Positions 2,501 through 49,436 of a stretch of 64,000 nucleotides of DNA are shown here, piece after piece. The notes under the pieces were generated by a model. The model worked only from the letters and a program-made list of their open reading frames with translations. It was not told the DNA's origin and searched no databases. Both the position numbers and the translations under genes were made by a program. How positions within the stretch are numbered: position 1 is the first letter of the stretch; the number at the start of each line of letters is the position of its first letter. The DNA comes from Candidatus Parcubacteria bacterium (lineage in GTDB: Bacteria; Patescibacteriota; Minisyncoccia; Phycocordibacterales; JAKAEA01): positions 1,126 through 65,125 of the forward strand of contig JAIFWI010000003.1 of the NCBI GenBank assembly GCA_019661945.1, written 5' to 3'.

Positions 2501-4195
2501 ATGAATCGTAAAAATATTGCAGTCTGGGTAAGTCTTGCCGCTCTTATCATTGTTCACCTGATTCTTCTTTCAAAAACATTTTATATTGACCCGGATGGCA
2601 GCATTCGTACAGCAGGCGCCGGGTATGGCGATATCCCATACCATTTAACTGAGATTACTAAATTTGCATTCTCTCCTTTTGATTTAAATGAGCCTATTTT
2701 TTACGGCACGAAACTACATTATCCATTTGTTATAAATTTAATCAGCGGTCTATTGTTGGGGCTGACTGGTTTATGGACGTTTTCAGTTATGGCTCCTGCA
2801 TATCTTTGTGCCATTGCCAGTGTCTTTTTGATATTTTTTATCTTCAAAAGATGTTTTAACCATCGTGGTTGGGCTATAGCTGCCATAATGATGTTTTATC
2901 TAGGAGGAGGGATGTCGGGAACAACATATATCATAGAAAACACATTTTATAAAAAAGATCCACCGAGAAGCTCAGAGACGATTCTTCTCGGTGCAAAATA
3001 TCCCGAACAAAACATTACTTATGGAGCACCACTTGTTCAGTTTTTCCTTCATCAGCGGACATTTATTATAGGTTTTTTTGCTTTTCTTTGTACGGTAAGT
3101 CTTTTCATTTTAACGTTCGAAAGAAAGCGTTGGAAATATGCTATTGCTGGAGGTGTTGCTCTTGGAATCATGCCACTTATTCATACCCATAGTTTCGTGG
3201 CAGCCTCATGTTTACTTGGATGTATTTTGCTGTATGCCATTCTAAAAAGAAATACCCTTGCCCTCAAGCAGTTTGGTTTACTTCTGGGTATTGCCGTCGT
3301 TATTGCATTACCCCAGATGGTGTATCTTTTAGGACAGAAGTCATTTTCAGAAGAAAATACCTTCAGTCTTTTCCGGCTTGGTTGGATGATATTGCCGGCA
3401 TTTGGCTCAGTTCAATTTCCTTCCGGTGTAGAACCAACGGCATTTTCTGTGGAATTTCTGAAGTTTCTATGGATGAATTTCGGTTTTTTTATACCGTTGT
3501 TTATCGCTGCTGTAATTTTAATTATCAAGCAGTATAAACAAAAAGATGCGGCAGGTGGCTATATTGTGCTATCTCTTTTTGCATCAGGCATTCTTTTTTT
3601 TGCAGCAAATATAATTCGTTTTCAGCCATGGGATTACGACAATAATAAGATTATGGCCTATGCAGTTTTTTTTGCCATACCGCCAATAATCTATACATGT
3701 AGATATTGGATAGATAAAAAGAAAATAATTGGAATCCCTATTACAATTATCTCAATTGCTATAATTGTAAGTGCCGGGATTATTGACATCACTCCGCGTC
3801 TTACAACACCATATCAAAAATTACTAGTTATTTTTAATACGTCAGATAGGGATGTGGCCGAATACATCATTGCTGCTGTTCCCGAACAGGATCTGATATT
3901 AACAGGCGACTATCATCTCAATCCTGTTGTTTCGCTTGCCGGCCGGCCGGTATTGGTAGGCTATCCTGGCTGGATTTGGACTCATGGTATAGCATATGGT
4001 GAACGGCTCGATGAAATTAAAAAATTCTATCATTCACCCAACGATAATCTCAATTTTTTGGAGAAATATCCAATTCGATATGTTATGCAGACAAATCAAA
4101 CACGGAATGATTATAAAGCCGATGTTGATTTTTTTGAGAGGACATATGAGAAGGTATATAACTCCGGTCAATACACGCTCTATAAGATTAAATAG
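2501..4195 (+). CDS. 564-aa polytopic integral membrane protein, possibly a GT-C-fold glycosyltransferase; function uncertain
   Basis: It is a long ORF with many hydrophobic segments and it sits next to the PMT pseudogene. No firm family-level motif was recognised. Confidence 0.7.
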   Translation: MNRKNIAVWVSLAALIIVHLILLSKTFYIDPDGSIRTAGAGYGDIPYHLTEITKFAFSPFDLNEPIFYGTKLHYPFVINLISGLLLGLTGLWTFSVMAPAYLCAIASVFLIFFIFKRCFNHRGWAIAAIMMFYLGGGMSGTTYIIENTFYKKDPPRSSETILLGAKYPEQNITYGAPLVQFFLHQRTFIIGFFAFLCTVSLFILTFERKRWKYAIAGGVALGIMPLIHTHSFVAASCLLGCILLYAILKRNTLALKQFGLLLGIAVVIALPQMVYLLGQKSFSEENTFSLFRLGWMILPAFGSVQFPSGVEPTAFSVEFLKFLWMNFGFFIPLFIAAVILIIKQYKQKDAAGGYIVLSLFASGILFFAANIIRFQPWDYDNNKIMAYAVFFAIPPIIYTCRYWIDKKKIIGIPITIISIAIIVSAGIIDITPRLTTPYQKLLVIFNTSDRDVAEYIIAAVPEQDLILTGDYHLNPVVSLAGRPVLVGYPGWIWTHGIAYGERLDEIKKFYHSPNDNLNFLEKYPIRYVMQTNQTRNDYKADVDFFERTYEKVYNSGQYTLYKIK

Positions 4196-4253
4196 CCTTG
4201 TTTAAATGCTGATTTTCTGGTATGTTTTCAATACATTTTATAGGATACATTAT

Positions 4254-4321
4254 GCGAGTATAGCTCAGGGAGCGGGGCAGGAGTTGCGGATCTCCTCCTG
4301 CCCCTAATAATGACGAGGTCC
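4254..4321 (+). pseudogene. truncated tRNA-Ile copy with an embedded perfect hairpin
   Basis: The copy contains the tRNA 5' half (GCGAGTATAGCTCAGG) and a partial 3' part of the anticodon arm (ATAATGACGAGGTCC). Between them sits a perfect 10-bp inverted repeat, GGGGCAGGAG..CTCCTGCCCC (4274-4304). There is no T-arm or 3' acceptor strand. The intact tRNA follows immediately. Confidence 0.6.
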
Positions 4322-4329
4322 GCACATAC

Positions 4330-4403
4330 GCGAGTATAGCTCAGGTGGTTAGAGCGCGTCACTGATAATGACGAGGTCCCAGGTTCGAGTCCTGGTACTC
4401 GCA
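4330..4403 (+). tRNA. tRNA-Ile (anticodon GAT)
   Basis: Manual cloverleaf: acceptor GCGAGTA/TACTCGC, D-arm GCTC-AGGTGGTTA-GAGC, anticodon stem CGTCA/TGACG with loop CTGATAA, and T-arm CCAGG-TTCGAGT-CCTGG. The discriminator is A and no CCA is encoded. Confidence 0.85.
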
Positions 4404-4557
4404 CCGTTGACATAATGGCCTCAAGTTGTATTATTACCTCGGAGTGTGACCGATAGTCTTTCAAGGAGGTGACCTATCACCCAATAGTCTGAGTCCGTCC
4501 AGAAAGATCGGAGCGTCCGGTCTTGCGATAAAGGAGTACGCATCTCTCGAGGATCTC

Positions 4558-4890
4558 ATGTCTAGCAGGAAGCATCTTTCCGAGGCCTCAGTGTTGTTTT
4601 CGTCGGGGACCTTTCTCAACCCGGACGTCAGGCGATGCCAGGCGCGTAACGAACCTCCGCCCAAGCGGAAGAACGTCTCGCCGGAACTCCGAAACTTCGT
4701 CAACCTCTCCGGGGATCTCGAAGGGTTGTACGGCGATGCCTCAGGGCTGCTCGGGGTCGCCTCCGGTTGCATCGGTGACTGCACCGGCAAGCGGGGCGAC
4801 GTAACTCACTACGGCGGCAGAATCGAAAACATGCCGCCGGATCGAATCGCTCGTGTCGTCTCATCAAGGGCGATGCGACAGGCAAGCTAG
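4558..4890 (+). CDS. hypothetical 110-aa protein in a GC-rich (~60%) island
   Basis: A Shine-Dalgarno site GAGGA lies 5 nt upstream of the ATG. GC3 is strongly elevated in this frame. A strong hairpin terminator follows on the same strand. The antisense ORFs share the wobble position and are less well supported. Confidence 0.35.
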   Translation: MSSRKHLSEASVLFSSGTFLNPDVRRCQARNEPPPKRKNVSPELRNFVNLSGDLEGLYGDASGLLGVASGCIGDCTGKRGDVTHYGGRIENMPPDRIARVVSSRAMRQAS

Positions 4891-4920
4891 GGGCCACATA
4901 CAAGGAGTGCTCTTCAGAAC

Positions 4921-4955
4921 GAAGCGCCGACACCACCGTCGGCGCTTCTCTCATT
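4921..4955 (+). terminator. rho-independent-type terminator hairpin (GAAGCGCCGAC-ACCACC-GTCGGCGCTTC)
   Basis: The stem is a perfect 11 bp, followed by a pyrimidine/T-rich tail. It lies at the 3' edge of the GC-rich island. Confidence 0.5.
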
Positions 4956-5025
4956 GTCATATTTGCTTTAGAGAAAAAAATCAGTATGATGGTTAAACAT
5001 ATTACTCAATAAATTAGTTATAAAC

Positions 5026-6456
5026 GTGGTTAATAAGAAAACAAAGATAGTAGCAACGATTGGTCCGGCAACACAGTCAGAAGAAAAACTGACAGAACTT
5101 TTACATGCAGGATTTAATGTCATGCGTATGAATTTTTCGCATGGTGATTTTGCCGAGCATCAGGTGAAGGTTGATAATTTGAAAAAAGCTATTAAAAAAA
5201 CCGGTATTCCAGCAGCCATCATGCAGGACTTGGCTGGACCAAAAATCCGTATTGGTGATTTTAAAAATGGTTCAATTACCTTAAAGGAAGGTCAAACATT
5301 TACCATTACTACTGATGAAGTTGAGGGGGATGAAACGCGTGTATCTGTTAATTACAAACCGCTTCCAAAAGAAGTAAAAGTGGGCGGCTTCATTATGGTC
5401 CATGATGGCCGTAAAAAATTAGAGATTACTCAGATTAACGGTAATGATGTTGTTACTAAAGTTCTTATAGGTGGCGAGATTAAAGGCCGCCGTGGTGTGA
5501 ATCTTCCTGGAGCATATCTTTCTATTTCATCACTGACTGAGAAAGATAAAAAGGATATTGAGTTTGGCATTAAAAATAATGTGGACTTTTTTGCTTTTTC
5601 ATTTGTGCGCCGACCGTCTGATGTTAAAGAATTGCGAGACATTTTAAATAAACAAAAATCAGAGGCCCTTATTATTGCAAAAATTGAAGATCAGGAAGCC
5701 ATTGAAAATATTGATAAGCTTATTGCCCTGGTTGATGGGGTCATGATTGGGCGAGGAGATTTAGCTATTGAAATTGGCGCTGAAAATATGCCTTTGGTTC
5801 AAAAAATGATTACAGCAAAATGTAATGCTGCTGGTAAGCCCGTCATCACCGCTACTCAAATTCTTGAATCAATGATAAAAAATCCGGTGCCAACTCGAGC
5901 TGAGGTTTCAGACATTGCCAATGCTATCTTTGAAGGCACTGACGCTATTATGCTTTCAGAAGAGACAACACTCGGTGATTTTCCTGTTAAAGCAGTTGAG
6001 ACCATGAGTCTTGTTTCAAAGACTGTTGAAATGGGAGACTTGTATCAGCAACATATTCTGGATATGCAGAAATTGAAGCATGAGCTTATCAGTGAGCGAG
6101 TGGCTGATGCGGTCACGAATGAAGTCGTAGACATTGCAAATGCGGTTAAAGCCAAGGCTATTGTTGCTTTCACCGATTCAGGATTTACGGCTCGAATGAT
6201 TTCTCGTTACAAACCTCTCCAGCCATTAATTGCTTTTACACCAAACGAAAAAACACACAATCAATTATTGTTAAGTTTTGGCGTTACTCCAATTCTCATT
6301 GATAAAACTACTATGCTTAACGATGTTATGAAGCACGCAAAAGATTACTGTTTGAAAAATAACATTGGCAAGAAGGGCGATAAAATAGTCCTGGCCCTTG
6401 GCATGCCTTTCGGCAAGAAAGTAGATACCAATATGCTCTTGGTGGAGACAATCTAG
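5026..6456 (+). CDS. pyk: pyruvate kinase
   Basis: The N-terminus KKTKIVATIGPA...MRMNFSHG and the motifs MVARGDLGIE-like (MIGRGDLAIEIG) match Pyk over 476 aa. The start codon is GTG. Confidence 0.9.
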   Translation: MVNKKTKIVATIGPATQSEEKLTELLHAGFNVMRMNFSHGDFAEHQVKVDNLKKAIKKTGIPAAIMQDLAGPKIRIGDFKNGSITLKEGQTFTITTDEVEGDETRVSVNYKPLPKEVKVGGFIMVHDGRKKLEITQINGNDVVTKVLIGGEIKGRRGVNLPGAYLSISSLTEKDKKDIEFGIKNNVDFFAFSFVRRPSDVKELRDILNKQKSEALIIAKIEDQEAIENIDKLIALVDGVMIGRGDLAIEIGAENMPLVQKMITAKCNAAGKPVITATQILESMIKNPVPTRAEVSDIANAIFEGTDAIMLSEETTLGDFPVKAVETMSLVSKTVEMGDLYQQHILDMQKLKHELISERVADAVTNEVVDIANAVKAKAIVAFTDSGFTARMISRYKPLQPLIAFTPNEKTHNQLLLSFGVTPILIDKTTMLNDVMKHAKDYCLKNNIGKKGDKIVLALGMPFGKKVDTNMLLVETI

Positions 6457-6523
6457 TTAAATAAGATCTTTACATTTTAGCAAATTGTGTTAATTTTGCT
6501 ACGGACCTAACAGGAGAACCACT

Positions 6524-7036
6524 ATGCCTCAAGAAGTTCTTAGTTCCAAGGAACACACAGATCTGGTTGAACACATTGTGGAGTATCTGAAAGAGAAGGG
6601 CAAATTCGATCCTGAGAAGCGGATGCGGATTACTGCAGAGGTTATAGGTACCACCGTAGAAGAGGTTAAAGTTCTCTCCTTGAGTTTAAAAAGGAAAGGA
6701 CCAGCTGGTGCACTAACCGAGAAGACGGATGAACCGATGAATGATGAGCGATGGGAAGAGATCCTTTCTGCTGGGTTACCAAAAGGCTGGAAAACAGAGT
6801 TGGTAAAAGAACTGCGAGCTCGCAACAATTCTGTATGGGAGAAAGATCTGCCCGAAAGATGTAAGGATGTCTATTATCCTCTTGGTGGAGGAGTTAAAAG
6901 TACCTTTGTAGCATACGGCAACTTTTATGGCTCCATGAAACATTGTGGACTGAGAGAGAAGTACAGGCTCATTCAACAGTGGGATCGTGCTCGAAGAGAT
7001 AGTTTGATAAAGATGGTTGTGTTGAAACCAAAGTAA
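6524..7036 (+). CDS. hypothetical protein (170 aa), moderately GC-enriched
   Basis: A Shine-Dalgarno site AGGAGA lies 6 nt upstream. A terminator follows. No domain was recognised. Confidence 0.6.
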   Translation: MPQEVLSSKEHTDLVEHIVEYLKEKGKFDPEKRMRITAEVIGTTVEEVKVLSLSLKRKGPAGALTEKTDEPMNDERWEEILSAGLPKGWKTELVKELRARNNSVWEKDLPERCKDVYYPLGGGVKSTFVAYGNFYGSMKHCGLREKYRLIQQWDRARRDSLIKMVVLKPK

Positions 7037-7066
7037 GGCAGCAACGGCTGGCCTTTTTTCTTTTTA
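7037..7066 (+). terminator. intrinsic terminator (AGGCAGC-AACG-GCTGGCCT followed by TTTTTTCTTTTT)
   Basis: Stem-loop with one bulge, followed by a T-tract. Confidence 0.55.
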
Positions 7067-7071
7067 AAATT

Positions 7072-7104
7072 CTTTACTCTTATATAAAATAGCCTATAGT
7101 AAAG
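7072..7104 (+). promoter_or_regulatory. promoter-like element (TTTACT-16/17-TATAGT), copy 1 of a 33-nt direct repeat; drives tRNA-Leu
   Basis: CTTTACTCTTATATAAAATAGCCTATAGTAAAG. The tRNA begins 9 nt after the -10 box. The sequence is 31/33 identical to 9746-9778. Confidence 0.5.
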
Positions 7105-7108
7105 GCAC

Positions 7109-7190
7109 GGGCACGTGGCGGAACTGGCATACGCGTACGTCTCAGAAGCGTATCCCGCAAGGGTTGAGGGTTCGACTCCCTCCGTGCCCA
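7109..7190 (+). tRNA. tRNA-Leu (anticodon CAG), type II with long variable arm
   Basis: Manual cloverleaf: acceptor GGGCACG/CGTGCCC, 3-bp D-stem with GG in the loop, anticodon stem TACGT/GCGTA with loop CTCAGAA, variable arm CCC-GCAA-GGG, and T-arm GAGGG-TTCGACT-CCCTC. Length is 82 nt without CCA. Confidence 0.8.
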
Positions 7191-7240
7191 CTCGAGAAGG
7201 CACAATTGAGATATGGTTCATTCTAGGCTAGAATATAGTA

Positions 7241-7894
7241 ATGGAAGGAATGAAAAATTGGGATATATCCCCTGAAGAACCTAAAAAACCAGAAGGTAAG
7301 CTCAAGAAATGGGCTATGGCCACAGCCATCGGCCTTTCGACATTAGCAGGTACTGCAAAAGAGGCTGATGCGGTTGAGAGACCTTCTAAAAATACTGACG
7401 CCAAACAAGTAGAGAAGAAGGAAGAAAAAGAATCTGTCCAGAAGAAAGTTGAAAAGATAAACAAACGGCTCAATGAATTGAGACATGGTATGCCTGAAGA
7501 ATTTAAAGAAAAATACGATATCACGGCATTTCATCGCTTATCTGATAGTAAAGGTCAAACAGAATTTTACATAAAATATAAGGATGAATATTACGCAATT
7601 TCTGATAGTCAGGCAGAAGAAATTTTAACTCGGTACGAAGTTGGAACTAGAGCAATTCAGTTTTATCTTGATGGTATAAAAGATATAGATAAAGAGATGA
7701 CCGAGTATTCAAAAAAGCAGGGCATAGAGGACCATATTAGAAAATCACGAAATGAAGCATTCGAAAGTGATAAGGAGAGATTTAATGTTCAAGCCGAGCA
7801 AGCACGAGAAAAGAGAAATAAGGAAGTTGAAGAAAAAACTGAAACTGATTTGAAGATAGCTACAAAAGTGAAAGGAGATCCATTATTTAAATAA
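7241..7894 (+). CDS. hypothetical protein (217 aa) with N-terminal hydrophobic/signal-like segment and K/E-rich region
   Basis: Long ORF with host-like AT-rich codon usage. No domain was recognised. Confidence 0.6.
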   Translation: MEGMKNWDISPEEPKKPEGKLKKWAMATAIGLSTLAGTAKEADAVERPSKNTDAKQVEKKEEKESVQKKVEKINKRLNELRHGMPEEFKEKYDITAFHRLSDSKGQTEFYIKYKDEYYAISDSQAEEILTRYEVGTRAIQFYLDGIKDIDKEMTEYSKKQGIEDHIRKSRNEAFESDKERFNVQAEQAREKRNKEVEEKTETDLKIATKVKGDPLFK

Positions 7895-7897
7895 AAC

Positions 7898-9103
7898 ATG
7901 AGCGAAGAAATACCTCAGTCACAACCATCGGAGCAGGCAATAGAAACTGGCGAGTCAAAGATCGAAAGAATGCGTCGAATGAGAGATGAAATTCTCGAAA
8001 AAGTTCGGACTACAGTTAGGGAGCGTTTCGAAAAGGAGCATTTTCATAACCCCGAGCATCCAATGAATGTCGATATAGCTTCAAGTGAAGTGTTTGCTGT
8101 ATTTAAAAAACACGATGGTCATAGAGTGACTGAGGAGGCAGATATTATCAGAAAAATTATTACCGAGAGTCATGATTTGGTGGTGCGCTATGTCCTCGAT
8201 GTTAAGACAGGAACTCGAATTCGCCAGCGAGGTACTCGATTTGGTGAGATACCGGCTAAAGCTAAAACTCTTGATCAAACGGATGACCAGGGAAATGAAC
8301 AGGCAAGTATCAAGGAGCTCATTGAGATCATTAAGGAAGTTGATCCAACAGGCGAAATATTTACTCCGGAAATATATCAAATCATTACTGAAGGTATTAA
8401 TGCGACATATCCTGAAGGCAGAAAAGATGGTAAGTTAGACGAGCTTAGTGAAGAAGAACTTAAAAAGATTACTGATCCAGAGACAGGACAACCGTTGGAC
8501 TTCAGTAAATTCAGAGATGCAGAAGGTAAGTTTTTGAATTATAACCTCGAACAGCCGTATCTAAAAGGTGCACAGTATCTTTCAACTGTTGCAACGGCGA
8601 TTGGAGATTTAAGTTATGTTGGCCGAGTATCTTTTGAAAAGTTTAAAAAGTTTGGTGATGCTGAATATCGTGAAACTCGAGAAAAGACAACATATGAACT
8701 TACGGAAAAAGATAAAGATTTACCTATAGAGAAAAGAATACAAGCGCTCAGTCCTGAACGAAAAGCGGAAATTGCAAAAGATATGATCTATGAATGGGTT
8801 AAGTTACAGCCTGGATTTGCTATCAGCCAAAAGATTCGCTTTAAAGACATTGTTGTTAATGAAAATGACCATACTGTTATTGATGATGTGGTGGAAGATG
8901 CAGAAAAAAGCAAGAAAATTAAAGATGAATTAGATAGCATTTATAATGAATTTGATCCAAATATTATCGGGGCGACTAAGCGTTTTGAAAGGCTTGAGGC
9001 AGCTTACTCCTCGCTCATTCAAGTTGAAAGTTTTGTAAAAAATCCTGACGAAAGTAATAAGCTCTTTATCGATCTTGCCCGCGATATGGGGTATAGTTTT
9101 TAG
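7898..9103 (+). CDS. hypothetical acidic protein (401 aa)
   Basis: Long ORF starting 4 nt after the previous stop, suggesting an operon. No domain was recognised. Confidence 0.65.
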   Translation: MSEEIPQSQPSEQAIETGESKIERMRRMRDEILEKVRTTVRERFEKEHFHNPEHPMNVDIASSEVFAVFKKHDGHRVTEEADIIRKIITESHDLVVRYVLDVKTGTRIRQRGTRFGEIPAKAKTLDQTDDQGNEQASIKELIEIIKEVDPTGEIFTPEIYQIITEGINATYPEGRKDGKLDELSEEELKKITDPETGQPLDFSKFRDAEGKFLNYNLEQPYLKGAQYLSTVATAIGDLSYVGRVSFEKFKKFGDAEYRETREKTTYELTEKDKDLPIEKRIQALSPERKAEIAKDMIYEWVKLQPGFAISQKIRFKDIVVNENDHTVIDDVVEDAEKSKKIKDELDSIYNEFDPNIIGATKRFERLEAAYSSLIQVESFVKNPDESNKLFIDLARDMGYSF

Positions 9104-9174
9104 CTCAGCATATTGACTTTTTAATAAAAAGATGTTAGTATAGAAAAAGTTTAACAAAGAAGGGAGGCCAGACA

Positions 9175-9678
9175 ATGGCCCAAGAAACGACGACCCCACC
9201 GGTACCGGTGGCAGCAGCGCCAAAGCAGGGAGCCGCGGTGCTCCTGCGCTACGGCAACGACATGCTCCTGATGCTCCGGGACGATAAGCCCGGGCTTCCG
9301 AGCGCTCTTCAGTGGTCGGTCTTCGCCGGCGGCATCGAAGAGGGCGAGACGGCCGAGATAACCATCGGTCGCGAGCTCCGCGAAGAGCTCGGCGGTCAGG
9401 TCCAGGTTGAGAGGCTCGGCAAGACGCCGGCCAATACCTGGTTCACTGCTTCGATCACTGGCCAGCATGCGGCTAACCTCAAGCGAGGAGAGGGCTGTGG
9501 TCACGGCTTCTTCTCATTCGATGCCCTTGTCTGGATGAGCAAGATCGACGGTAAATTGGGACTCGGCGGCGCGATCAAGAAGTTCATGGAGCGCGCGCCT
9601 GAGGAAATCCGGATATTCCTCCAAAGTGGCCGGAATCCCAACCTCTCGGTACTCACCGGCATCATCGTCGAGCCGTAG
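9175..9678 (+). CDS. NUDIX hydrolase (GC-rich, ~63% GC)
   Basis: The Nudix box GGIEEGETAEITIGRELREELG matches GX5EX7REUXEEXGU. A Shine-Dalgarno site GGGAGG lies 6 nt upstream. Composition is strongly atypical for this genome. Confidence 0.8.
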   Translation: MAQETTTPPVPVAAAPKQGAAVLLRYGNDMLLMLRDDKPGLPSALQWSVFAGGIEEGETAEITIGRELREELGGQVQVERLGKTPANTWFTASITGQHAANLKRGEGCGHGFFSFDALVWMSKIDGKLGLGGAIKKFMERAPEEIRIFLQSGRNPNLSVLTGIIVEP

Positions 9679-9715
9679 CGCCTGAAGTACCTTCCGTTCC
9701 TGCGACACATGTCGC

Positions 9716-9741
9716 GCAGCGTCCCACACCCGGGACGCTGC
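9716..9741 (+). terminator. intrinsic terminator (GCAGCGTCCC-ACACCC-GGGACGCTGC, then TTTACTTTACT)
   Basis: Perfect 10-bp GC-rich stem downstream of the NUDIX gene. Confidence 0.6.
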
Positions 9742-9745
9742 TTTA

Positions 9746-9778
9746 CTTTACTCTTATACAAAATGGCCTATAGTAAAG
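9746..9778 (+). promoter_or_regulatory. promoter-like element, copy 2 of the 33-nt direct repeat (TTTACT-17-TATAGT); near-leaderless start of pgeF-like gene
   Basis: CTTTACTCTTATACAAAATGGCCTATAGTAAAG. The ATG at 9783 lies 9 nt after the -10 box and has no Shine-Dalgarno site. Confidence 0.5.
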
Positions 9779-9782
9779 CCAT

Positions 9783-10577
9783 ATGCTTTTTAAGCCGTAT
9801 AAACACTTTTTACTTACCGACAGACTTCAGGTCTATATTTACGGTAAGCCCCATAATTGGAGTATGCATAATCAGAAATCATGGAAAAATGTAGCAATGC
9901 TTGCTGATACATTAAACGTGACAAAGATATATTCGCCATTTCCCGAAGAATTCAATACCCGAATTTGTCAGCAAGAAGATTTCATTGAATATGATCCCGG
10001 TATTTCAAAAACAGTTAAAATATTTCGAACACCAAAAGGTAATCCAGCAGAAGGTGCCCTTATTCCTCAAGGAGCTGCCTTTTGGACAACATCAGCTGAT
10101 TGTCCCATGATTTTAATATACGATGACAAGCAAGCGGTTGCCACACATAGCGGGCGTGATTCACTCGTTACCTATGATCCATATCAGAGTAAGATTCGAC
10201 CAAATGAAAGTGTGATTGACGGGATGATTAAGTTATTTCCGGAGTCAAAACATTCTCAACTCAAAGTATTTTTTGTTAATCGAATTGCACCAGAACATTT
10301 TGCAAATCCAATTAATGATCCCAAAAATGGAGAGCGCAATAAAAAAATTATTAATGCTGTAATTAAAAAATGGGGCAAAGAATGTATAGTCGGTAATCTA
10401 AATGAAGGACATATTTCATTAGCAACACTCATTCTTAAGCAATGCGAATTCTATGGTATCCTAAGCAAGAATATCATAGATGGTGGACTCGATACGTTTT
10501 CCGACTCACATCTTTGGAGTCACCGTCAAGGCAATATGGAGCGTAATAGAATTCTTGTAATACATCACGTAAAGTAA
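9783..10577 (+). CDS. pgeF: YfiH/PgeF-family (DUF152, laccase-domain) protein, peptidoglycan editing factor-like
   Basis: Motifs SADCPMIL, ATHSGRDSL and SHRQG...NRIL resemble the ADC..., HAGWRG and SYRR boxes. It lies immediately upstream of murD-murC. Confidence 0.55.
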   Translation: MLFKPYKHFLLTDRLQVYIYGKPHNWSMHNQKSWKNVAMLADTLNVTKIYSPFPEEFNTRICQQEDFIEYDPGISKTVKIFRTPKGNPAEGALIPQGAAFWTTSADCPMILIYDDKQAVATHSGRDSLVTYDPYQSKIRPNESVIDGMIKLFPESKHSQLKVFFVNRIAPEHFANPINDPKNGERNKKIINAVIKKWGKECIVGNLNEGHISLATLILKQCEFYGILSKNIIDGGLDTFSDSHLWSHRQGNMERNRILVIHHVK

Positions 10578-10585
10578 TACAAATC

Positions 10586-11923
10586 ATGTATACATTAGGA
10601 TATTTTAAGGGTAAAAAGATTACGGTCATGGGACTTGGCCTCCTTGGACGTGGGGTGGGGGATATTAAGTTTCTGGCTGAAGAGGGTGCAGAGCTTATTG
10701 TCACTGATTTAAAGTCTCAAAAAGAATTACAGGCCAGTGTAGATGCCCTTAAAGATTTCCCTAAGATTACGTATGTTCTTGGCGAACATCGGCTGGAAGA
10801 TTTTAGAAATAGGGATTTTATTCTAAAAGCTGCAGGTGTGGCACTGGATTCACCTTTTATTGAAGAAGCGCAAAAAAATAATGTGCCAATTGAAATGAGT
10901 ACATCTCTTTTTGCGAAATTGAGTCCTGCTACAATTGTTGGTATTACCGGAACGCGGGGAAAATCTACAGTGACGCATTTGTTGTATGAAATCCTTCGAC
11001 AGGCTCAGGACAAAAACACCCAGGTGTTTTTGGGTGGAAATATTAGAGGAGTTTCTACCCTACAATTTTTACCCCAAGCAAAAAAAGGAGACATTGCTGT
11101 CCTTGAGTTAGATTCATGGCAATTGCAGGGTTTCGGAGAATCAAAACTTAGTCCGCATATTTCGATTTTTACCACGTTTCTGCCGGATCATCTCAACTAT
11201 TACCGGGGCGATATACATAAGTATTTTCAAGATAAGGCTCATATTTTTGCGTTTCATACCGAAAATGATTATTTGATATTAGGTAAGGACGTAGAAGAGA
11301 CTGTAAAACAACAGTATAAAGAGGAAATAAAAAGCAAGATAATAATTGCTGATCCAGAAAAAGTTCAAGGCTGGAATATTGCCATGCCCGGAGAACATAA
11401 TGCCTATAATGTTTCGGTAGTTCTTGAGGCGGCCAAAGTTTTGGGTGTCCCGGAAGATGTGGTTAAGAAAGTAGCGGCAGAATTTAAAGGCGTGCCCGGC
11501 CGTCTTGAACTCATTCGAGAATTTAATGGTATTAAAATATACAACGACACTACAGCGACGACACCTGACGCTACTCTGGCGGGACTCAAGGCTCTTGGAA
11601 GCCTGGCTTCCAAACACACTATTCTTATTATCGGTGGCGCTGATAAAAATTTAGATATGTCAAAACTTGTTACGGCCATTCCTGAGTATTGTAAAACAGT
11701 AATTTTGTTATCAGGCACGGGAACAGAAAGAATAAAAAATACAATTGCCGGAGTGACAAAAGTTGAAACTAAAAATCTAGCTGAGGCAGTAGCCAAAGCC
11801 CTTGAACACGCTTCATCAGGCGATGCTATCCTCATGAGCCCTGCCTTTGCCTCCTTTGGCATGTTTATAAATGAATTTGATCGGGGAGAGCAGTTTAACG
11901 AAATTGTGAAAAATCTAGAATAA
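10586..11923 (+). CDS. murD: UDP-N-acetylmuramoyl-L-alanine--D-glutamate ligase
   Basis: N-terminus GKKITVMGLGLLGRG, the Mur ligase P-loop GITGTRGKST, and overall MurD architecture over 445 aa. Confidence 0.9.
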   Translation: MYTLGYFKGKKITVMGLGLLGRGVGDIKFLAEEGAELIVTDLKSQKELQASVDALKDFPKITYVLGEHRLEDFRNRDFILKAAGVALDSPFIEEAQKNNVPIEMSTSLFAKLSPATIVGITGTRGKSTVTHLLYEILRQAQDKNTQVFLGGNIRGVSTLQFLPQAKKGDIAVLELDSWQLQGFGESKLSPHISIFTTFLPDHLNYYRGDIHKYFQDKAHIFAFHTENDYLILGKDVEETVKQQYKEEIKSKIIIADPEKVQGWNIAMPGEHNAYNVSVVLEAAKVLGVPEDVVKKVAAEFKGVPGRLELIREFNGIKIYNDTTATTPDATLAGLKALGSLASKHTILIIGGADKNLDMSKLVTAIPEYCKTVILLSGTGTERIKNTIAGVTKVETKNLAEAVAKALEHASSGDAILMSPAFASFGMFINEFDRGEQFNEIVKNLE

Positions 11924-11940
11924 CCATATACTAAAGGCAT

Positions 11941-12129
11941 ATGGCCTTAGATTATACTTTTATGGATGCTCCACAGTGGGAGCCGAGTATTAAGAAAATT
12001 CTTTGGGCAGTTCTTATTCTTTTGGTTATGACCTCGAGCGTTATTGTCGCTCTATTTGCGATCAAAGTGCCTCAATATCAGGCCCAAGTTGATCAAACAG
12101 CGTATGAATATAGATCTTCAAAAAATTAA
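11941..12129 (+). CDS. small single-pass membrane protein (62 aa)
   Basis: A promoter-like TTGTGA-17-TATACT lies just upstream. The protein has one TM helix. It overlaps the murC start by 26 nt. Confidence 0.4.
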   Translation: MALDYTFMDAPQWEPSIKKILWAVLILLVMTSSVIVALFAIKVPQYQAQVDQTAYEYRSSKN

Positions 12130-47989: not shown

Positions 47990-48870
47990 ATAGACACTTA
48001 GTGTCCAAATTTAACTCTATTTTATTATTTATTTATAAAGTTTTTAAGTTCAATTATCTATAATTCGTTGGACACTTAGTGTCTCAACTTATGAGAAATA
48101 TCGAACTTTCAGTCGGCAGTTACTATCATTTATTTAACCGAGGTGTGGATAAAAGATTAGTCTTTCTCGATCAAGATGATATCGGCCGGTTCCTTTTAAG
48201 TATGAACCTATTTAATTCGACTATTCCTCTAGGTAGTATCTACCAAAGTAATTTAGTGAAAAAGAAGGAAGAACGTGGACACTTAGTGTCCAAACCAGTA
48301 GAAAGGCTGGTTGAGTTTATATGTTATTGTCTAAATCCTAATCATTATCATTTCCTCATTCAACAGCTTGCTGATAAGGGAATAGAGAAATTCATGCACA
48401 AGCTCGGAAATGGATATACAAAATATTTCAATCATAAATACAAACGCACAGGCTCTCTATTCGGAGGAAATTATAAATCAGTTTTAATAAAGTCAAATGA
48501 ACAACTTTTACATACAAGTGCATACATAAATCTGAACAATAGGATTAGTGAAAAGGGAAGTATATTTGATCTATCTAAATCAAGCTGGGGCGAGTATATC
48601 TCTAATCAAGACGGAATATGCAATAAAGATATAATCCTTGAACAGTTCACTGATAGTCAGGTCTATAAGTCTTTTGCTGAGAGTTCCTATATAGATATTC
48701 AAGAAAGAAAAATACTAAGAAAAGAGCTTGAAATATGGGGAGTGGACACTTAGTGTCTATAAGCTATACTAAAGTTGTAACAAATCCCAATCCTATCCAG
48801 TTATAACAGGTGTAAAGGTCGGCAAAATGAACTAGTGGACCGGGATGGGTAGGGAAAACCCATCCTGTAA
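47990..48870 (+). mobile_element. RAYT/IS200-like element: HuH-Y1 transposase gene with four REP-like palindromes and a terminal hairpin
   Basis: The GGACACTTAGTGTCC-type palindrome occurs at 47993-48005, 48071-48083, 48278-48290 and 48744-48756. A strong hairpin lies at 48841-48867. Confidence 0.6.
48091..48753 (+). CDS. REP-associated tyrosine transposase / IS200-family TnpA-like (Y1 HuH)
   Basis: YYHLFNRGV N-terminal motif, HuH motif PNHYHFLI, and a Tyr-bearing GGNYKSVLI...YINLN region. One palindrome copy lies inside the ORF and one overlaps the stop. Confidence 0.7.
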   Translation: MRNIELSVGSYYHLFNRGVDKRLVFLDQDDIGRFLLSMNLFNSTIPLGSIYQSNLVKKKEERGHLVSKPVERLVEFICYCLNPNHYHFLIQQLADKGIEKFMHKLGNGYTKYFNHKYKRTGSLFGGNYKSVLIKSNEQLLHTSAYINLNNRISEKGSIFDLSKSSWGEYISNQDGICNKDIILEQFTDSQVYKSFAESSYIDIQERKILRKELEIWGVDT

Positions 48871-48878
48871 CCATATCA

Positions 48879-49436
48879 ATGGAAACCCATAAAGAAAAAA
48901 GTGATAGCGAATTATTGGCCCTGTCGGTCAATCACCCATCTGCCTTTGGCATTTTGGTTGACCGCTATCAGAAGGAATTCCTACGTAAAGTAACATTCAT
49001 TTTAAAAAATAAGGAAGAAGCCGAAGACATAGTCCAGGATGCTTTTGTAAAAATCTACACGCACGCTTCGAAATTTAAGGTTCAGGAAGGAGCCACCTTT
49101 AAATCCTGGGGCTACAAAATTCTTTTAAATACCTGTTATACCTACTGCAAGAAGAAGAAACGTGAACAGCAGTTTCGAGAATATATTGAAATCGATGCGG
49201 ATCTCGTGTTTTCAGAAAATGAATTTGAGAAAAAATTTGATCTTGATCAGACCTTATCAATTATTTCAAAAATCCCTGTGGCTTTAGCTCGAATGCTGAC
49301 CCTGACCTTGCTTGAGGGAAAAACGTACGAAGATATTGCTGAAATAGAAAATCTTACACCAGGCGCAGTCCGGACCAGAATGCATCGAGCTAAACGAGAA
49401 TTTGAAAAAATTCAACAAGAATATGCAAAGCCATGA
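48879..49436 (+). CDS. ECF-type sigma-70 family RNA polymerase sigma factor
   Basis: Region 2 (DIVQDAFVKIY...) and region 4 (LTPGAVRTRMHRAKREF) signatures. Confidence 0.8.
   Translation: METHKEKSDSELLALSVNHPSAFGILVDRYQKEFLRKVTFILKNKEEAEDIVQDAFVKIYTHASKFKVQEGATFKSWGYKILLNTCYTYCKKKKREQQFREYIEIDADLVFSENEFEKKFDLDQTLSIISKIPVALARMLTLTLLEGKTYEDIAEIENLTPGAVRTRMHRAKREFEKIQQEYAKP

Follow-up and report, generated by a model that had tools for sequence, protein, structure and literature searches.

Leaderless mRNAs are common in Actinobacteria and Deinococcus-Thermus, and the lambda cI transcript from PRM belongs to the same category. For transfer RNAs (tRNAs), leaderless transcription in Nanoarchaeum equitans, an organism without ribonuclease P (RNase P), was reportedly described by Randau et al. 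in 2008. The lack of RNase P and the leaderless transcription of tRNAs are both recorded for this species (PMC10100707). The mapped transcription starts of 49 bacteria coincide in position with a pyrimidine-purine-pyrimidine motif, of which the centre lies 7-8 base pairs (bp) after the -10 hexamer, and the dominant discriminator length is 5 bp (PMC12641261). The present analysis concerns a stretch of 64,000 nucleotides (nt) from the contig JAIFWI010000003.1 of a Candidatus Parcubacteria bacterium, hereafter called the window, in which a short sequence is repeated upstream of a tRNA-Leu(CAG) gene and upstream of a pgeF-like gene followed by murD. To judge from their sequence and from the related loci, the two copies are probably two instances of one duplicated sigma-70-type core promoter, one feeding the tRNA and the other a near-leaderless transcript of the cell-wall genes pgeF and murD.

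A repeated promoter-like unit and its origin

The initial annotation had reported a near-identical direct repeat of 33 nt, and this observation is confirmed. The 33-mer CTTTACTCTTATAYAAAATRGCCTATAGTAAAG is found on the plus strand at 7072-7104 and again at 9746-9778 with 31/33 identical positions, and not a single match to it was obtained in 100 dinucleotide shuffles. Ungapped extension brings the pair to an identity of 33/36 (7072-7107 versus 9746-9781), and these 36 nt form the top-scoring direct repeat across the 64 kilobases (kb), with a blastn E-value of 1e-8 for a search within the window. The copies have the same orientation, lie 2.67 kb apart and share exact runs of 13 nt at most. Both mismatches of the 33-mer are transitions located between the two hexamers described below, and the third mismatch of the 36-mer is a G/C difference at position 34. 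Beyond these 36 nt the flanks are unrelated and no similarity was found between them. Further copies, or copies of intermediate similarity, are absent from the window, where the next-best sites carry 12-13 mismatches as expected from shuffled sequences; the count of two refers to these 64 kb and does not extend to the genome as a whole.

The layout common to the two copies, C-TTTACT-16 nt-TATAGT-AAAG(G/C)-CA, is that of a core promoter (Table 1). The spacer, for which the initial annotation had allowed 16 or 17 nt, measures 16 nt in both copies and is identical at 14 of its 16 positions, and the -10 hexamer agrees with the consensus at 5/6 positions, A2 and T6 being kept. A pyrimidine-purine-pyrimidine triplet, CAC in copy 1 and CAT in copy 2, is centred 7 bp past the -10 hexamer; on the basis of the rule established in the 49 species (PMC12641261), the transcription starts are therefore predicted at A7107 and A9781. 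The similarity between the copies extends from the base preceding the -35 hexamer at one end to this predicted +1, position 36, at the other. In addition, exactly 8 nt separate the end of the -10 hexamer from the first base of the product in both cases, namely G7109 of the tRNA and the A of the pgeF ATG at 9783. Both copies are intergenic and placed between a terminator and the start of a co-oriented gene. The repeated unit thus appears to be a core promoter spanning about -36 to a predicted +1. It is on these bounds, on the constant 8-nt distance, on the position behind terminators and on a homologue in a related locus that the duplication of a promoter module, one of the two origins put forward in the initial annotation, can be upheld.

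This homologue lies upstream of pgeF in the related locus L008, of which the pgeF product is 68% identical. The sequence CTTTACTTGTATCTTACGTAGTATAAAGTAGGG found there matches the 33-mer at 22/33 positions and can be written CTTTACT-16-TAAAGT, the agreement being 7/7 and 5/6 for the two hexamer regions and 6/16 for the spacer. Hexamers and spacing are kept and the spacer has diverged, as one would expect if a promoter had been conserved; the match is suggestive, and its location lends it weight. Since a diverged version precedes pgeF in L008, the pgeF copy is probably the older, parental one. The high identity of the spacers within the window would then reflect a young duplication or gene conversion, and not a constraint on the promoter. 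A control for this type of comparison is provided by the 47 nt upstream of pyk (4958-5004 in the window, 840-885 in L004), which are 85% identical in the two loci, the proteins being only about 67% identical. This stretch holds TTGCTT-16-TATGAT and a leader, and is thus a promoter or leader element that has been conserved, so that native promoters are able to survive over such an evolutionary distance.

A succession of events can be proposed on this basis. In the related locus L009 the tRNA is located 13 nt after pyk and is read as co-transcribed with it. In the lineage of the source genome, the gene p170 and its terminator would have come between pyk and the tRNA, which would have cut the latter off from pyk transcription. 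The promoter module would have been copied within this lineage, giving two instances of one sigma-70-type core promoter, and the copy of the pgeF promoter would have taken over tRNA-Leu(CAG). Copy 1, behind a terminator blocking read-through, would start a tRNA transcript with a leader of 0-2 nt, and copy 2, likewise protected, would start a near-leaderless pgeF-murD mRNA translated without a Shine-Dalgarno sequence. If confirmed, this would be a clean natural case in which a very small genome has copied a core promoter in its entirety (-36 to +1). A gene that an insertion had cut off would regain its expression through the copy, and a tRNA and a leaderless mRNA would be served by one sequence.

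Several points weigh against this explanation. The -35 hexamer agrees with TTGACA at only 4/6 positions, the spacer is of 16 and not 17 nt, and the extended -10 is missing. A scan with the consensus promoter is unspecific, giving 32 sites versus about 20 expected in 9 kb, and both promoter activity and start sites are predicted from the sequence and not from transcript 5' ends. The match in L008 is modestly significant, its score being reached by 10/300 locus-wide shuffles; no trace of the motif was found at the tRNA or pgeF position in L004 and L009, and the ancestral state is deduced from a single relative. The search for copies covers 64 kb, and extra copies may exist elsewhere in the genome. 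Finally, a promoter has no need of the terminal 7-bp inverted repeat CTTTACT/AGTAAAG present in both 33-mers, an arrangement found in 3% of shuffles (p about 0.03).

A part of the unit is encountered at other places of the window. The sequence TATA(G/C)TAAAG, or TATAsTAAAG, occurs 4 times versus 0.35 expected, and the occurrences other than the two copies are at 11927 and 48765; the generic TANNNT-AAAG is not enriched in the window (15 versus 17.9 expected). The region 11925-11943, which reads CATATACTAAAGGCATATG, displays the same succession of -10 hexamer, discriminator, start motif and ATG as copy 2, with a -35 hexamer (TTGTGA) and a 17-nt spacer of its own. Because TATAsTAAAG recurs at two further sites, the 3' third of the repeat would be a preferred initiation module of the source genome, the 5' two-thirds being apparently private to the pair. 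Genome, metagenome and viral collections were scanned with the 19-base skeleton CTTTACT-N14-CCTATAGTAAAG and gave only unrelated hits, namely Clostridium, a metagenome-assembled genome of Lachnospiraceae, two contigs from metagenomes and one from a virus; three of these hits were examined and carry one and the same sequence, of which the spacer is unrelated. Among the observations that would refute it, the initial annotation had named a generic promoter motif present in many copies. The result is mixed: recurrence applies to the portion from -10 to the start, which is found at two further window sites, and not to the full motif, which is not multi-copy in the window or in the collections. As a separate observation, the small single-transmembrane protein encoded downstream of the site at 11925-11943 has a weak likeness (E = 0.07) to the N-terminus of a 276-amino-acid protein encoded between murD and murC in the related locus L010.

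No Shine-Dalgarno sequence is present in the 8 nt between the -10 hexamer of copy 2 and the pgeF ATG. The start codon at 9783 can be considered as fixed because the N-termini of the homologues are conserved, the alignments beginning at residue 1 (M-x-F/I-x-P-Y-K). The pgeF-murD mRNA is accordingly predicted to be near-leaderless, with its AUG 2 nt from the 5' end, and the leader of tRNA-Leu(CAG) is predicted to measure 0-2 nt. A comparable placement is seen in the relatives: the distance from the end of TATAAT to the ATG of pgeF is 6 nt in L009, and that from the end of TGcTAGTAT to the ATG of murD is 7 nt in L010. At the scale of the window, a Shine-Dalgarno-like motif precedes only 7/54 genes. 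A TANNNT hexamer ending 5-9 nt before the start is found for 14/54 genes versus 11% of all ATGs (Fisher p = 0.003), clear examples being the genes that start at 2501, 7241, 35484 (minus strand) and 53225. Translation without Shine-Dalgarno sequences seems therefore to be common in the source genome. A full-text literature search for 'leaderless' together with 'Parcubacteria' gave no paper. If confirmed, the present finding provides further evidence, at the level of the sequence, for a heavy reliance of Parcubacteria on initiation of the leaderless or Shine-Dalgarno-free type, with consequences for gene calling and start-codon annotation in the genomes of the candidate phyla radiation (CPR).

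Alternative origins and functions

The resemblance of the two copies could have another history. Two old promoters, each maintained independently, might have been kept alike by gene conversion, in a form of concerted evolution, or the pair might be the remnant of a larger tandem duplication with its interior replaced. The common orientation of the copies and their distance of 2.67 kb are in keeping with either scenario, as is the presence of transitions only within the 33-mer, and the third, partial relative found 2.1 kb further on would suggest a local exchange among the promoters of this gene cluster. However, 13 nt is short compared with the minimal substrates of homologous recombination, and the longest exact runs shared by the copies do not exceed this length. 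The lack of any similarity outside the 36 nt, and of any trace of the motif at the tRNA in L004 and L009, argues in the same direction. Both scenarios, which concern the origin of the pair and not its function, are doubtful.

A second possibility is that the 33-mer combines a promoter with the operator of a dedicated regulator. Selection on a binding site, constituted by the inverted ends or by the spacer, would keep the copies alike and would co-regulate tRNA-Leu(CAG) with pgeF-murD. A spacer identity beyond what contacts with RNA polymerase require, as well as the 7-bp terminal inverted repeat found in both copies, would be explained in this way. The inverted repeat is, however, only marginally unexpected in shuffled sequences; its ends are not kept in L008, which carries AGTAGGG, and the spacer of L008 has diverged as well. 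Moreover, the half-sites are 26 bp apart from centre to centre, that is about 2.5 helical turns by our own arithmetic, and would thus lie on opposite faces of the helix. No candidate regulator gene is adjacent. An operator is possible and weakly supported by these features, and we regard it as unlikely.

A more ambitious proposal would make of the unit, from -36 to +1, a portable 'zero-leader' promoter cassette. This cassette would be re-used in a reduced CPR genome to start both an mRNA and a tRNA no more than 2 nt from their functional 5' ends, and would spread locally whenever gene insertions sever old promoters. As a consequence, tRNA-Leu(CAG) would have little or no need of 5' processing by RNase P, a bacterial parallel to Nanoarchaeum equitans. 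The other tRNA of the window, tRNA-Ile at 4330, has no comparably placed -10 hexamer, and an RNase P RNA was not found with Rfam, a search that covers these 64 kb only. A reduced dependence on RNase P, which rests on a single tRNA, is unlikely, and the cassette as a whole is a speculative proposal to which little credence can be given.

The initial annotation had also suggested that the direct repeats were left by an insertion of the segment 7105-9745. According to this idea, they would be attachment (att) or target-duplication scars of a mobile or horizontally acquired block of 2.6 kb, comprising tRNA-Leu, p217, p401 and the NUDIX gene and inserted between pyk and pgeF. The direct orientation of the repeats, the limits of the block, marked by a tRNA on one side and by a gene with deviant GC content on the other, and the fact that p217 and p401 were not found in related loci are all compatible with such an event. 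The comparison of the pyk..murD regions nevertheless shows that the block is not absent as a unit from the relatives. In L009 (pgeF 53% identical), the order is pyk, 13 nt, tRNA-Leu(CAG), an open reading frame (ORF) of 66 amino acids, pgeF, murD and murC. In L004 (pgeF 67% identical), it is pyk, a gene of 427 amino acids, tRNA-Leu(CAG), a gene of 206 amino acids, pgeF, murA and murD. The slot of L010-L013 (pyk 59% identical) comprises pyk, a 65-amino-acid ORF, a promoter with a Shine-Dalgarno sequence, the NUDIX gene (53% identical, 47% GC), a terminator and murD. Finally, L014 (NUDIX 65% identical) displays a tRNA 3' end, a promoter and the NUDIX gene, with 59% GC on a contig of 53% GC. The layout of the window NUDIX gene, a promoter-like site followed by a leader with a Shine-Dalgarno sequence, recurs upstream of NUDIX in L010 and L014.

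Because the tRNA is in the slot of L004 and L009, and because NUDIX is in that of L010-L013 and beside a tRNA in L014, the two ends of the block are old residents of this slot. The only genes of the region that were not found in the copies of the slot in relatives are p170, p217 and p401, of which the last two alone belong to the block. The sequence of the repeat leads to a similar view. Copy 1 stops at 7107, short of the tRNA that begins at 7109, so that no tRNA base is included, and nothing in copy 2 resembles a tRNA; the bounds of the repeat follow those of a promoter and the starts of genes, and not those of an insert. Target duplications of typical transposons are far shorter than the 33-36 bp observed here. 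No integrase, recombinase or transposase was detected in p217, p401 or NUDIX with Pfam, PHROGs and NCBIfam, and a tblastn comparison of p401 with phages and plasmids gave nothing. An insertion of this kind is largely refuted and highly improbable, and the practical result is that it can be dropped as an explanation of the repeats.

Other identities of the 36-mer were considered and rejected. A structural element of RNA or DNA is not supported by the fold, which is not significant (z = -0.35 and -0.46). An interspersed repeat of the repetitive extragenic palindromic (REP) or miniature inverted-repeat transposable element type was set aside on account of the two copies in 64 kb, of the absence of a significant fold, of the limited significance of the inverted repeat and of the unrelated hits alone in the collections. 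An assembly artefact is unlikely, since exact runs of 13 nt or less could not join contigs in a k-mer graph, and the synteny on either side agrees with that of the relatives.

Genes, terminators and other features of the window

The features of the pyk-murC region are listed in Table 1. The tRNA-Leu(CAG), pgeF-like and NUDIX genes are located where the initial annotation had placed them, and NUDIX is GC-rich as had been claimed. The Rfam searches over 4000-11000 and over the whole window returned only two tRNAs.

Table 1. Coordinates and characteristics of the features found between pyk and murC, in window positions
Feature	Position	Strand	Details
pyk	5026-6456
p170	6524-7036
Hairpin with T-run after the stop codon of p170, probable intrinsic terminator	7035-7065	+	hairpin 7035-7055, -8 kcal/mol, z = -1.15; then T-run TTTTTTCTTTTT
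Repeat copy 1, predicted core promoter	7072-7107	+	-35 TTTACT 7073-7078, 16-nt spacer, -10 TATAGT 7095-7100, discriminator AAAGG, start motif CAC 7106-7108, predicted +1 A7107
tRNA-Leu(CAG)	7109-7191	+	ARAGORN; Rfam tRNA 53.7 bits
Promoter-like site TTGAGA-17-TAGAAT	7206-7234	+	ends 6 nt before p217 ATG 7241
p217	7241-7894	+	charged; signal-peptide-bearing look, judged by eye
p401	7898-9103	+	member of an uncharacterised HNxxH...HD family
Promoter-like site of the NUDIX gene, TTGACT-17-TAGTAT	9113-9141	+	then leader with Shine-Dalgarno sequence AAGGGAGG
NUDIX hydrolase gene	9175-9678	+	58-62% GC versus 40% for the window
GC-rich terminator-like hairpin after NUDIX	9716-9741	+	strong: -22.1 kcal/mol, z = -6.1
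Repeat copy 2, predicted core promoter	9746-9781	+	-35 TTTACT 9747-9752, 16-nt spacer, -10 TATAGT 9769-9774, discriminator AAAGC, start motif CAT 9780-9782, predicted +1 A9781
pgeF-like (Cu-oxidase_4) gene	9783-10577	+	ATG 8 nt after the -10 hexamer, no Shine-Dalgarno sequence
murD	10586-11923		8 nt past the pgeF stop
Partial third relative of the module, TTGTGA-17-TATACT-AAAGGCAT-ATG	11904-11943	+	directly after the murD stop, opens the 62-amino-acid ORF
Membrane ORF of 62 amino acids	11941-12129	+	ahead of murC, overlaps the murC start
murC	to 13402

The presence of a terminator with a GC-rich stem ahead of each copy, another element of the initial annotation, holds fully for copy 2 and in part for copy 1. 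The hairpin ahead of copy 2 is strong and is predicted, as a terminator-like structure, to insulate this copy. Ahead of copy 1 the stem is weak though the T-run is good, and the structure is a probable intrinsic terminator that would insulate the promoter in the same way.

The two genes located between the tRNA and NUDIX had been described as domain-less orphans. This is true of p217, for which no family match was obtained in Pfam, PHROGs or NCBIfam and no tblastn match in the related loci. On the contrary, p401 belongs to a family for which a threshold of E <= 1e-3 gives at least 168 cluster representatives, with the invariant residues H50, H54, H92, D93, R109, N133, E134, T170, D237, E256 and E259. 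The profile of this family aligns with class-I cyclic-nucleotide phosphodiesterases (5vyd, 7d7p, PDE8A) with an E-value of about 1e-4 over the HNxxH...HD region. Since no Pfam family was matched, p401 would represent an undescribed family of the HD/phosphodiesterase type, distantly resembling these class-I enzymes. The AlphaFold model of p401 is poor, with a predicted local distance difference test (pLDDT) score of 59.8, and a Foldseek search of the PDB gave no match below E = 0.1.

The NUDIX gene deserves a separate comment. It is among the few genes of the window that have a long leader together with a textbook Shine-Dalgarno sequence, and its GC content of about 60% is found in a genome of 40% GC. 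The L010-L013 slot holds an orthologue of near-normal GC content (5097-5570 in L010). The closest homologue is that of L014 (119-592), beside a tRNA, with an identity of 71% at the DNA level. This situation suggests that NUDIX was replaced in place by a copy originating from a GC-richer relative, the gene being a long-standing resident of the slot with a foreign-looking composition.

In the region 3749-3835 of L004, the 206-amino-acid ORF is called from the base that immediately follows the 3' end of tRNA-Leu, and it overlaps the pgeF start by 4 nt; the tRNA, this ORF and pgeF may form one transcript.

Other features were observed upstream of pyk and at a distance from the repeats. A pseudo-tRNA of 76 nt abuts tRNA-Ile(GAT) (4330-4405), the two together covering 4254-4405. 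The pseudo-tRNA and the intact gene have in common their first 16 nt (GCGAGTATAGCTCAGG) and AATAATGACGAGGTCC, the middle of the pseudo-tRNA being replaced by the GC hairpin GGGGCAGGAG-TTGCGGATC-CTCCTGCCCC. In L012 and L013, two intact tRNA-Ile genes are found about 230 nt apart. Right after tRNA-Ile, a second GC-rich island (4440-4945, 57-63% versus 40%) ends in the hairpin GCGCCGACACCACCGTCGGCGC; it holds an ORF of 110 amino acids (4558-4890) without family match, and nothing corresponding to the island was obtained in Rfam or in the related loci. Further downstream, the palindrome GGACACTTAGTGTCC occurs 4 times (at 47992, 48070, 48277 and 48744, in the region 47992-48758) versus 0.75 expected. 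Its copies lie around and inside a Y1_Tnp gene of the IS200-like or REP-associated tyrosine transposase (RAYT) type (48091-48753), which is followed by a gene for an extracytoplasmic function (ECF) sigma factor (48879-49436). The whole looks like a REP/RAYT or IS200-type element.

Comparison with described systems

The arrangement recalls the islands that use att sites linked to tRNAs by its direct repeats, by a tRNA at one end and by the variable cargo beside this tRNA. It differs from them in that the repeat is located upstream of the tRNA and contains no tRNA bases, that no integrase is present, and that both the tRNA and the distal NUDIX gene have been conserved in this slot among relatives.

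The likeness to the tRNAs of Nanoarchaeum equitans lies in the placement of copy 1, from which transcription would begin no more than 2 nt from the mature 5' end of the tRNA. The case described here is, however, limited to one bacterial tRNA, and a leader of 2 nt would still need trimming.

The promoters of leaderless mRNAs offer a further parallel. As in these promoters, the -10 hexamer of copy 2 ends 8 nt before an ATG without a Shine-Dalgarno sequence, and this placement recurs at other genes of the window and at the pgeF and murD genes of relatives. Two differences can be noted: the predicted leader of 2 nt (AT-AUG) means that the AUG is not strictly 5'-terminal, and the host is a member of the Parcubacteria (CPR).

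The repeat can finally be compared with the sigma-70 (housekeeping) core promoters of bacteria. The two copies depart from them by sharing 33/36 positions, spacer included, which the consensus alone does not explain, and by lacking an extended -10 as well as a common UP element. They resemble them by hexamers near the consensus, by a spacer of 16 nt, by a purine-rich discriminator of 5 nt and by a C-A-Y triplet 7 bp after the -10 hexamer (PMC12641261), as well as by their intergenic position, after terminators and on the strand of the downstream gene. The element is thus most probably of an ordinary kind, a promoter of the sigma-70 type and not a new kind of element, and it is its configuration that is instructive.

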